This document shows, one piece after another, positions 34,785 to 53,431 of a stretch of 64,000 nt of DNA. Both the position numbers and the translations under genes were made by a program. Under the pieces are notes generated by a model. That model did not search any database. It saw only the letters and a program-made list of their open reading frames with translations, and had not been told where the DNA came from. Position 1 is the first letter of the stretch. Every line of letters starts with the position of its first letter. The DNA comes from Eledone cirrhosa (Eukaryota), in assembly GCA_964016885.1 (NCBI GenBank), contig OZ024752.1, positions 1,488,001-1,552,000 on the forward strand, given 5' to 3'.

Positions 34785-35360
34785 ATGAATGTGCGTATAG
34801 TATATTTTATAATATACTGTATGTTTATTTAAAAAAAACATTTTGAAGACCTATGGCATTTACTGTAGTGACTACGTCACGTAGATAGTACCGGCAAAAG
34901 CAAAGTGGGTAATCGACGTTCATCGTTTCTCGCTGATAAACGGTTGTCAAGACTACTCACCACTTCGATTCTACTGATAGTTATAGAAGCTGGATTCTTA
35001 TTGAATTCCAGTTATGTTTATGAGCTGTTTAAACTTATTAACATACAGAGCGGTTGACAGCCCGGCAAAAATTAGAAATTAGTATTAGTGCTCTGAAATA
35101 ACGATGTATATATGAATGTAGTTATAGTATATTTGATAATATACTGTATGTTATTTTAAACCATTTTGAAGACCATTCGCTATGAATTTTAAAGTAGTGA
35201 CTACGTCACATACTCAGTCTTGGCAAGGCAAAGGGGAGTAATCGACTGTCACCATTTCTTGCTCAGCTCAGAAACATAACTGGAATTCTATAAGAATCCA
35301 GCTTCTATAACACTCGGCAGAACCGAAGAGGTATGTGGTCTTGACAACCGCTTATGACAG
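34785..35360 (-). mobile_element. Retrozyme-like family D relative: 323-bp tandem unit followed by an inverted segment
   Basis: TTTTGAAGACC..GTAGTGACTACGTCAC recurs at 34841 and 35164. 35265-35352 is an inverted copy of ~34940-35027. Patchy homology to 38330-38940. Confidence 0.7.
34904..34964 (-). ncRNA. Type I hammerhead, UUGACAA (U3-A8) core, GUC site
   Basis: AGTGG..GTC-TTGACAA-cCG-tttatcag-CGa-GAAA-CG-atgaa-CG-TC-GAT..CCACT. Confidence 0.6.
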
Positions 35361-37375
35361 GCCTGTTTTTCGTCCCAAGGTGTGTCCCAAATTACCCTCC
35401 TCACCAAGCAGGCTTGGTCACTTAATATGTGACAATTTTGGGGATGCATGACATCAGATATGAAAAATATATTATCTAGATTTAATGACCACGTGATGCA
35501 CATTAACATTATGCAAACGGTTAGATTTTTAGAACACTGTGAGACGTTTTTGAAATACATCCCTAAAATGTTAATATCATTAACCACCATATTTCAACAA
35601 TTCATTCGAAGTATTTCCAAAGATGAAATTAAGATGTAAACTGAATCTATCTACTTATATTCTTCTAATAAAAGAAATGTATCATATGATAGCATATTAT
35701 TAATATCTCATAGTAGTTTATCAAAGAAAATTACATTGAAATATGAGTTATTATCAGTGAATTAATGAATATTTGATGTCCTACGACATTATCGAGTAAA
35801 GATATATTTCTGTCGTCAAAACCGACGTCTGTTAATTGTTATGTATTTAAGATAAAGCTCACTGATCTGCATACTCGTATGCATACATATGATAACATTA
35901 TTTAGTAATTACTTTGCGGAAGTTTATAATGGAATATTGCCCACAGAACATCAATGCGTAGTAATATTTAGATTGTAGATAATTAATAAAGGATTTGATT
36001 TTAAATTATTTTGAATAAGTAAAGGTGCATTTTCAAGCAGATGTGAATCTGGTGAAGGTTAATAGGAAGATAAAATTAATTTAACATTTCTAATATATGG
36101 AATGCGGTAAAACTCTAACGCAAATGTAAGTTAAGAAGAAAGCATTAAGGAATGAATTCTGTTCAATAATCCTAATTACGGCATTTTAAATTTTCTTTGA
36201 TCATCTCTTCCGAAATTATTGAAATCAATAAGTGAACAAAAAGAAAAAGAGCCGATAGTCGGACCGGACCAGAGAAAATATAATTCCATTCGCTTTTCCG
36301 GTCGCAATTTCTGGCAGAAGGAGATGGTAATGGACTTCGGAATCTACAGAGCCTGTTCAAAATCATATTACCGACTATTTAATGATTTTTCAATTCAATC
36401 GCCCCGGATTGGTAATTTGTCTATCATACACCAACATTGGAGGGATTCCAACGTAAATTTCAATATCATGGGCCCGGTACATTTGAGATAGGCCCTTAGA
36501 GGCGAAAGCTAATAATACTTGTCAAGTAGACAAGCAATGTTGTTTTTCTGAATAATGTCTAACAATGGTTACCATACGTAAAATTGATCCGACCTTCAGC
36601 TTGGTGTATTTTGAAGAGAACCTCCTCGCCTTCCTTTAACACGAAGCGTAATCACGGTGAAAGAGATTCACTATTTAACATGATTGAATAAAAATGAATA
36701 CAGGCATATGTATCTATGGTTAAAGACACTAGAAGTGGAAATTCAGGATGGAGAAAGAAGGGCTGATATTCTGCAAATGTTTAAAAACCTTTAAAAGAGA
36801 AGCAAGCATGATACAATTAAACGGGTCTTCTCTGAGTGTGCACGTATACACCGGAAGAAAAAAACTGAGAAAAGACACTTGCCTTGACTAAACAAGTCAA
36901 TGAGTTGTTTATGCGTTTCCCACGATTAACTCACGGAAATCACACATTTAGGCAGACCTTTTTATTTGTTTTTCTATTTCCTCTTTACGTTTTCTTGGAA
37001 ACCCACATAATAATATGTAACTATTATTAAAAATTAGAATATAAAAAAAAATATATTGATATAGGCAAATAATCAAGGAAATATTTAACATAATTAACAT
37101 ATTTGTATATATAATATAATATAATATAATATATATATATATATATATATATATATATATATATATATATATATATATATATAAGACAGCATATATATGT
37201 GTAGGTATGTATATTTCCTCTGATAGTTTGTAAAATGTTTACATAGATCTATATGATATACATACCAACAGACACATATATATCCTTGAAACGATCGTAA
37301 AATGATCAATTTTTTAATATAAGGAACTGTTTCTTTGTTTTTATTCATTGTTTTTATTAATTTATATATATATAT

Positions 37376-37625
37376 ATAACGAAGGAAGTGTGGTAAGGAA
37401 CCAGATGGACAATAACGCACCAGAGTACTCAATACTTAGGGTAGTAGAGTGGGTAGTAGTGAAATTTAAGTAAGTAAGTTAATTACTATAATTTTCTTAT
37501 TTTCGTCTTTTATATAATTGTTCTACATCTCTTTGTATTGAACCACAAAGTTACTAAGACAAAACCTCTTTTTTTGTTAGCGTAAGTATACATCTGTATA
37601 AATATGTTGGTAGATATACTAATTC
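37376..37625. mobile_element. Head-to-head chimera: family F 3' end (-, 37376-37457) joined to family C post-ribozyme segment (+, 37456-37625)
   Basis: Left part matches the reverse complement of 47365-47445. Right part matches the reverse complement of ~18610-18770. Confidence 0.7.
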
Positions 37626-37767
37626 TCTCTCTCTCTCTCTCTCTCTCTCTCTCTCTCTCTCTCTCTCGCTCTCTCTCTATATATATATATATATAAAGAA
37701 AAAAAGATGAAATCAAAAATGCAACTGGAGTCATATTTTAAAAAATATATATATATTTATTTGGTTC

Positions 37768-52491: not shown

Positions 52492-53283
52492 ATATCAACT
52501 AGAAACAGATTGACATATATATATATAAACATATGGAACAATCACAGGGAATAAACTGTAAAGAATGTAAGCACACATAGCTAGGTAGGTAACCAGTTAA
52601 AGTTTAACTAGAACTTCAAATATAGATACCTTTTAAAATGATTAATCTCATTTGTATATATTTTGTAGTAAAAGATATATTTCACCAATTAATCATTGAG
52701 CTTATTCTACAGTGGATATGGTGCATGTCTCTCAGACATGACAACCCTTAATTTAATTTTGGATATATATACGGCCCCTTTATTGTAGAGCTAACTCAGT
52801 TGAATGGACGCGGTTGCTATTTCTAGCTGTCGATAATCCTATTCACGCCACTGGGATGACACTGTGCGATGTGTGTATTTAAAAAAAAATGCAACACGGG
52901 GTTCGAGTCATTCACAGATTTGCATTTGCTTTGTAAACGCAGATAGTTAATTCTTCTCCTTTGGTGACCATCCAAGATTTGACTACTGTGATTTACGGAT
53001 TAATTGGTGAAATATATTTTTTACTTAAAAAATATATACAAAGGAGATTAATCATTTTAAAAGGTATCTATATTTGAAGTTCTAGTTAACCTTTAATTGG
53101 TTACCTACCTAGCTATGTGTGCTTACATTCTTTACAGATTATTCCCTGTGATTGTTCCATATGTTTATTTTTTATATATATATATGTCAATCTGTTTCTA
53201 GTTGATATGAAATGGTCGGATCTATGATTTGGAATGATGTGGCGCATGTCTCTCAGACATGACAACCCTTAATTTAATTTTGT
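52492..53283. mobile_element. Inverted-repeat element: arms 52492-52694 / 52998-53208; 3' end duplicated at 52722-52762 and 53244-53282
   Basis: About 200 bp inverted arms with TA tracts at both ends. Confidence 0.8.
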
Positions 53284-53334
53284 ATATATGTATATATATA
53301 TATATATATATATATATATATAGGAACGAGTAGG

Positions 53335-53431
53335 ACCCCGACGGCTGAGCTCAAGCCGTTTCGACGGCTAATTCTGGACTATATGAACATTTTTATCCTG
53401 GTACATGAATAGCCGAGCTTCTCAGGGGGGT
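53335..53431 (-). ncRNA. Type I hammerhead (family F), non-canonical CUGAGAA core, long stem II, GUC site
   Basis: CCCC-CTGAGAA-GctCGGCTATTC..GAAtTAGCCGtC-GAAA-CGGC-ttgagctca-GCCG-TC-GGGG. Confidence 0.6.

Follow-up and report, generated by a model that had tools for sequence, protein, structure and literature searches.

Predicted type I hammerheads with a U3-A8 core pair in two non-coding repeat families of Eledone cirrhosa, likely mobilised by Penelope-like elements

The stretch of the Eledone cirrhosa genome analysed here ("the window") comprises 64,000 nucleotides of contig OZ024752.1 (assembly GCA_964016885.1, positions 1,488,001 to 1,552,000, forward strand) and has a G+C content of 32%. 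TA, CA and TC microsatellites are abundant in it, together with dispersed repeats resembling short interspersed elements (SINE-like) and, as seen in a masked self-BLAST, many short inverted and tandem repeats. Our subject is a set of hammerhead ribozyme motifs in this stretch in which the C3-G8 pair of the core is replaced by U3-A8. All six U3-A8 cores listed in an earlier note on the same DNA are present as exact 7-mers: UUGAUAA at 38458 and 38774 (plus strand), UUGACAA at 34944-34950 (minus), and UUGAAAA at 37794-37800 (minus), 37884 (plus) and 47625-47631 (minus). They are not six events, because 38458 and 38774 belong to a tandem duplication and one inversion has 37794 and 37884 in its two arms; the six cores reduce to two families, A and B, with two insertions each, and thus to four insertions in all.

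Family A is represented most completely at 38330..38949 (plus), where two head-to-tail copies of a non-coding, retrozyme-like unit of 316 bp lie with TA-rich runs on either side, the family itself ending in TA-rich sequence. The repeat has a period of 316 and 2.0 copies, the units around 38458 and 38774 being 98% identical; 110 of the 316 bases are G or C (35%), and the unit holds no open reading frame (ORF) of 120 or more amino acids. The joint between the copies (38715>38400) recurs under three organism labels: in 82 reads of sequencing run X24, in one X1 contig and in one X6 contig. Hammerhead A1 (38458..38493, plus) is of type I, with the U3-A8 core UUGAUAA, a GUC site and a predicted cut after 38493; A2 (38774..38809, plus) is the same, with its predicted cut after 38809. 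A1 has a 4-bp stem II closed by G10.1-C11.1 and a near-palindromic stem III of 9 nt, which forms no hairpin on its own and for which a duplex between two copies is computed at -10.1 kcal/mol. The hairpin enclosing A1 (38426-38522) folds at z = -9.55, and the predicted unit RNA (38494-38809) is self-paired, with a fold z of -5.84.

A diverged member of the family lies at 34915..34950 (minus), with the core UUGACAA. It is assigned to family A on flanks that are 77% identical to the unit and on motifs that align, and outside its 4-bp stem II a C10.1-A11.1 mismatch takes the place of the usual G-C pair. Close by are the 3' half of a further, truncated family-A hammerhead (GAAA to UC; 35244..35258, minus) and a 5' half reading UUGACAA (35341..35347, plus), the latter within the inverted piece 35264-35355. 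Just left of the family-A copy at 34786, at 33758-34234 (plus), is the fragment of an ORF end of the LINE (long interspersed element) type with a zf-RVT domain (PF13966).

Sequence comparison supports selection on family A for the predicted hammerhead fold, because the core is kept while the flanks diverge and the changes within stems preserve pairing. The motifs at 38458 and 34944 agree at each of the 12 invariant core positions and differ within the core at N7 alone, a position that varies in nature, while identity outside the core is 176/277 (about 64%) and falls to 33/79 in the hairpin around it; as the core served to anchor the alignment, the p of 0.004 that this would imply is a rough value. 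The same picture is obtained from 3,526 reads of X24, with a depth near 540 over the core, and from the X1 and X6 contigs: none of the best 40 of 138 differences touches the core, and positions near it vary in 23-64% of the X24 reads. The two listed changes within the first four pairs of stem I, next to the core, keep the pairing, 38454 G>A (284/514 reads) turning G-U into A-U and 38457 C>T (149/518 reads) turning C-G into U-G. Nine of the 12 listed insertions or deletions fall in stem or loop III, and in single X1 contigs stem II is altered without losing its pairing, and stem III is replaced by another self-complementary sequence. As read from the sequences, then, family A carries the marks of a type I hammerhead: its helices covary while the core stays fixed.

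Family B is found as the two arms of the inversion 37757-37927. The motif of the left arm (37771..37800, minus; core UUGAAAA, GUA site) has a 4-bp stem II, a 4-nt stem III and a stem I of 3 bp, and that of the right arm (37884..37913, plus) has a palindromic CCGG stem III and a C-A mismatch in stem I, so that stem I of this family is either only 3 bp long or mismatched. The self-duplex of the CCGG stem III is computed at -8.3 kcal/mol. A distant copy at 47602..47631 (minus), within the inversion 47481-47868, has U3-A8 but reads GCAA for GAAA (A13C), and the arm opposite it has a decayed core. The position changed is invariant in the established hammerhead consensus, and on this sequence ground the copy is likely inactive. 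The covariation of stem II from GCAG/CUGC to GCAU/AUGC, in which the earlier note had seen selection, is real, but it amounts to a single compensated pair and occurs in this A13C copy. With a 3-bp stem I, motifs that fold no better than shuffled sequences (z about -1) and one copy that is likely dead, the evidence for selection on family B is thin. Neither is the claim that positions 3 and 8 change together borne out within A or B, as no C3-G8 member of either was seen. A further core proposed for a "family F" (UUGAGAA, 47308-47314, plus) was rejected: it arises at the junction of the inversion 47266-47362, the copy at 53323-53375 reads UCCAGAA there, no stem II forms, and the region around 47308 folds as a plain hairpin.

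The U3-A8 motifs are not a product of chance, because both searches for them return far more than shuffled sequence does. A strict U3-A8 hammerhead pattern has four matches in the window compared with none in 100 shuffles, and its C3-G8 version has no match within the window. With positions 3 and 8 left free, a stem-checked descriptor has seven matches against 1.15 expected from local Markov shuffles, and the U3-A8 share of these is five against 0.16 expected per window. The descriptor matches at 21829, 30369 and 11239 were taken as chance, given the expectation of about 1.15 per window; the first of them has U3-A8 but is AT-rich and unrepeated. Rfam lends the motifs no support, with 0 matches at gathering score in the window; when E values as high as 10 are admitted, the best 150 of 309 matches include no hammerhead family and are mostly microRNA models on microsatellites.

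Counted by hand, the window contains about 20 whole, half or degenerate hammerhead motifs in about seven families: two with U3-A8, two with canonical C3-G8, one with degenerate C3-G8, and two with C3-G8 and an A at position 4. The canonical comparators are two inverted motif pairs, each a single insertion, at 8019..8396 (motifs 8077 minus, 8338 plus) and 62206..62452 (motifs 62260 minus, 62398 plus). In the earlier estimate that at least 6 of about 22 motifs are U3-A8, the denominator holds approximately, provided that half and degenerate copies are included. The copies of a repeat are not independent events, and what remains is the two families and four insertions given above. Families with a mismatched 3/8 pair, which could have been as common as those with U3-A8, are absent among the seven or so of the window, and they are rare in the small samples at hand, being absent also from the six metagenome motifs described next.

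A Penelope-like ORF is represented at 17136..17714 (minus) by a 3' fragment that has a GIY-YIG domain (Pfam PF01541, 23.9 bits compared with a cut-off of 22.6), and relatives of this fragment were collected from 10 metagenome loci. Eight were counted as Penelope-like elements (PLEs); L009 and L010, whose GIY-YIG matches are partial and weak (E 6e-7 and 8e-6) and which have no PLE-like tail, were left out, and L001 (a microsatellite tail of 285 nt) and L007 (a tail of 110 nt), which have no motif, were counted as misses. In six of the eight, a minimal hammerhead lies on the sense strand 50-420 bases past the GIY-YIG gene, against 0.024 expected per eight shuffled tails. The scan of the tails imposed no pairing between positions 3 and 8, and these are paired in 6/6 motifs: as C-G in L003 (position 1150), L004 (1475) and L006 (1146), as U-A in L008 (1350), as G-C in L002 (1246), and as A-U in L005 (1567). 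For the three loci without C3, a matching partner would be met by chance about once in 64, assuming equal base use. All six motifs have an extra base after A9, and L003 and L005 have an identical stem-loop II, yet differ in the 3-8 pair.

Because all six loci pair, and in four combinations, it is the presence of a pair that is conserved, and which pair it is looks open to exchange; we infer that selection keeps a Watson-Crick 3-8 pair, not one particular pair. The same loci speak against a special role for U-A. The four states require at least three double changes, whose order cannot be read from the GIY-YIG tree, which is mostly unresolved (two of six inner branches supported). Since what is kept at 3-8 looks to be a pair and not specifically C-G, genome surveys would do well to admit every one of the four combinations. 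Viral contigs bear on C3: among the matches listed, G8 is present in 60/60 C3 motifs that pass the stem filter and in 20/64 that fail it. The corresponding U3 scan was uninformative, 1 of 98 distinct motifs among the matches listed having passed the filter; the family-A pattern has no match in the viral contigs, and the PLE alignment search found no relative there.

The U3-A8 pair as such is not new. Covariation from C3-G8 to U3-A8, compensatory and active in vitro, has been described for several natural ribozymes (Perreault et al. 2011, PMC3088659), and the PLEs of Schistosoma mansoni contain about 1,300 U3-A8 motifs next to about 2,000 with C3-G8 (Cervera and de la Pena 2014, PMC4209133), so that "uncommon", the word used in the earlier note, is wrong for this class. 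One of 56 representatives, from Saccoglossus, has a U3-G8 wobble (PMC4209133, Fig. S3), the intermediate that a change of C-G into U-A would be expected to pass through. What is new here is two further U3-A8 families, the variant itself having been in print since 2014. The G3-C8 and A3-U8 pairs seen in L002 and L005 differ in this respect, since natural examples are not reported in the part of PMC3088659 used, and literature searches found none for PLE hammerheads, the one paper returned for these pairs having an engineered G3-C8, though Lunse et al. 2017 or Przybilski and Hammann 2007 may cover them.

As to the kind of element, a type I core (N3-UGA-N7-N8-A, GAAA, UH and a Watson-Crick 3-8 pair) is found at 38458, 38774, 37800, 37884 and 34950, and not at 47631 or 47308. 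Three helices surround the core, with the structure open at stem I and G10.1-C11.1 present, in A1, A2 and the family B motifs B1 and B2, the motif at 34950 having C-A there. The window motifs resemble the hammerheads of the Cercyon PLEs of S. mansoni (PMC4209133) in being of type I with U3-A8, in the same two 7-mers (representatives Sm3 and Sm4), in the palindromic centre of helix III, and in the occurrence of close opposite-strand pairs and many solo copies. They differ from the Cercyon motifs as described there in that no additional nucleotide follows A9, except perhaps in 34944, and in that no PLE ORF is attached, and their 4-bp stem II and stem III of 4-9 nt are those of canonical metazoan hammerheads. 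Family A is at the same time like the metazoan non-LTR (non-long terminal repeat) retrozymes (Cervera and de la Pena 2020, PMC7229834; 10.64898/2026.07.22.740005): its head-to-tail unit of 316 bp is within the reported 150-450, it is non-coding and low in G+C, it has one type I hammerhead per unit, and the predicted unit RNA is self-paired. It departs from the retrozymes described in those sources in its U3-A8 core and in being known here from DNA alone, while family B departs from them in being seen solely as inverted pairs.

A link to PLEs is suggested by the short self-complementary helix III of the PLE type, present in both families, and by the inversions 37757-37927, 47481-47868 and 34936-35355, each of which adjoins TA runs; inverted 5'-truncated copies and microsatellite targets are typical of PLEs (PMC8557442). 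Li, Clavereau and Pollet (2026; preprint 10.64898/2026.07.22.740005) moreover argue for an origin of animal retrozymes in the terminal repeats of PLEs, and metazoan type I and PLE hammerheads share a dimer design under which cleavage takes place in multimers and monomers escape it (PMC4209133). By analogy with these systems, we infer that A and B were probably mobilised by PLEs.

The explanation that we favour, with a probability of roughly 0.7, is that the U3-A8 motifs are predicted dimer-dependent type I hammerheads in two non-coding families likely mobilised by PLEs, and that U3-A8 is likely a near-neutral exchange of the 3-8 pair. A tandem transcript would bring two stem III palindromes into pairing, a cut after GUC (family A) or GUA (family B) would release RNA of unit length, and the reverse transcriptase and endonuclease of a PLE would reinsert this RNA into TA runs, often with an inverted 5'-truncated copy. 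The change from C-G to U-A would proceed by two transitions by way of the U-G wobble, favoured by AT-rich DNA, and the 3-8 state of the founder copy would then be multiplied, so that copy counts would not measure selection. Przybilski and Hammann are said to have found in 2007 that any Watson-Crick 3-8 pair keeps cleavage, the rate differences being context-dependent and often moderate.

Several points weigh against this explanation. Neither A nor B is attached to a PLE ORF within the window, and the self-BLAST gave no sequence link between either family and the GIY-YIG fragment. The PLE sample is six loci, with one locus for each non-canonical pair; every locus is known from one contig and may be a decayed copy, and L003 has only 1 bp of stem I in the scan made here. 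The read comparison, which covers the best 40 of 138 differences, sets no upper limit on minor variants of the core, and the X24 reads come from a reduced-representation library. The AT-bias step is conjectural, and it leaves unexplained the G-C and A-U pairs, which need transversions. In A1, finally, U3 enables the strand 38457-38460 to form, in the model, a competing pairing with the 5' strand of stem III, which may mean that U3-A8 is not neutral there: the active fold of the monomer is computed to have a share of 2e-5, compared with 4e-4 for an in-silico C3-G8 control.

That difference of about 20-fold is one of the observations that would suit the possibility raised in the earlier note, taken here to mean that selection favoured U3-A8 time after time because its weaker pairing would slow down cleavage and so spare multimeric transcripts for reverse transcription; the fixation of U3-A8 in two families without mutual DNA similarity, and the slowness of PLE hammerheads in vitro, would suit it as well. 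Yet both fold shares are tiny and the effect concerns monomers, while the competing pairing needs the stem III peculiar to A1, which differs in 34944, in an X1 variant and in family B. The one S. mansoni minimal hammerhead assayed, Sm1, represents C3-G8 and is itself very slow. Dimer dependence would already set the timing of cleavage, and because the palindromic stem III predicts cutting in multimers, and because related PLE hammerheads use all four Watson-Crick pairs, we find a role in slowing cleavage very unlikely. Selection for the fold and for a Watson-Crick 3-8 pair is what stands of the earlier proposal. Were U3-A8 to tune the rate, it would be a rare instance of a ribozyme detuned for the life cycle of a transposon, which the evidence here does not favour. 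Just as improbable, in our view, is that the motifs are dead relics in which AT-biased decay turned C3-G8 into U3-A8 and which spread without cleavage. Some features do look like decay, such as the A13C change of 47625 in a copy whose stem II nevertheless shows a paired change, the lack of G10.1-C11.1 in 34944, and the short stem I and indifferent folding of family B, and Naiad PLEs are known to spread without canonical hammerheads (PMC8557442). Decay would, however, be expected to produce families with a mismatched 3/8 pair, of which neither the window nor the six PLE loci has any, and it fits poorly with a family A core that is invariant within a hairpin so diverged and whose stem changes keep their pairing.

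More weight, if still on the unlikely side, is given to the idea that A and B descend from a single U3-A8 ancestor, so that there was no recurrence in this genome and the mechanism was otherwise that of our favoured explanation. Both families have a 4-bp stem II starting with GC and, unlike the six metagenome motifs, no extra base after A9, and no C3-G8 member of either was seen; against this, self-BLAST finds no DNA similarity between A and B at E 1e-3, and stem I and stem III are of different lengths and sequences in the two families. The recurrence of U3-A8 in unrelated families, as the earlier note had it, is unproven within this genome: A and B share no detectable DNA similarity, but have no coding sequence by which to place them in a tree. 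In nature at large the pair does recur, being present in phages, in schistosome PLEs and in L008. Going beyond near-neutral exchange, we suggest, as a speculation more doubtful than the single ancestor but less so than slowed cleavage or decay, that PLE hammerheads exchange the 3-8 pair among all four Watson-Crick combinations, with surveys based on CUGANGA missing many of them, and that in family A U3 may also act as an off-switch of the monomer, the core staying paired to stem III as long as no second copy has recruited that strand into a dimer.

The window holds further repeats of related appearance. Long near-perfect inversions by TA runs are found at 3874-4173, 7830-8585, 20045-20195, 52527-53166, 61779-61952 and 62163-62495; their pattern is that of PLE inverted insertions, and some are without a recognisable hammerhead. 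In both copies of the GIY-YIG element's terminal repeat (at about 16750-16780 and 54230-54275, minus), GAAA is preceded by the core CAGUUGA, which is changed at positions 4 and 6; in the copy at 54 kb, stem II is in addition a perfect 4 bp and the centre is palindromic. A four-copy family made up of two inverted pairs (3104-3396, 3498-3764, 39042-39344 and 39454-39760) is hammerhead-like, with the core CAGAAGA, and thus A at position 4, in all four copies. Its stem I is kept, its stem II is not conserved and its folding is no better than that of shuffles; it may be a decayed or a variant ribozyme. The segments 18202-18373 and 18716-18887 (minus) are 98% identical copies with a C3-G8 core (18328, 18842) and weak stems, and are linked to the family F pieces at 37379-37617 through repeats that they have in common. 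Finally, a SINE-like family of about 200 bp is represented at 12900-13124, 41793-41903, 49750-49945, 58089-58540, 60585-60768 and 63140-63343, including a tandem pair at 58096-58540.

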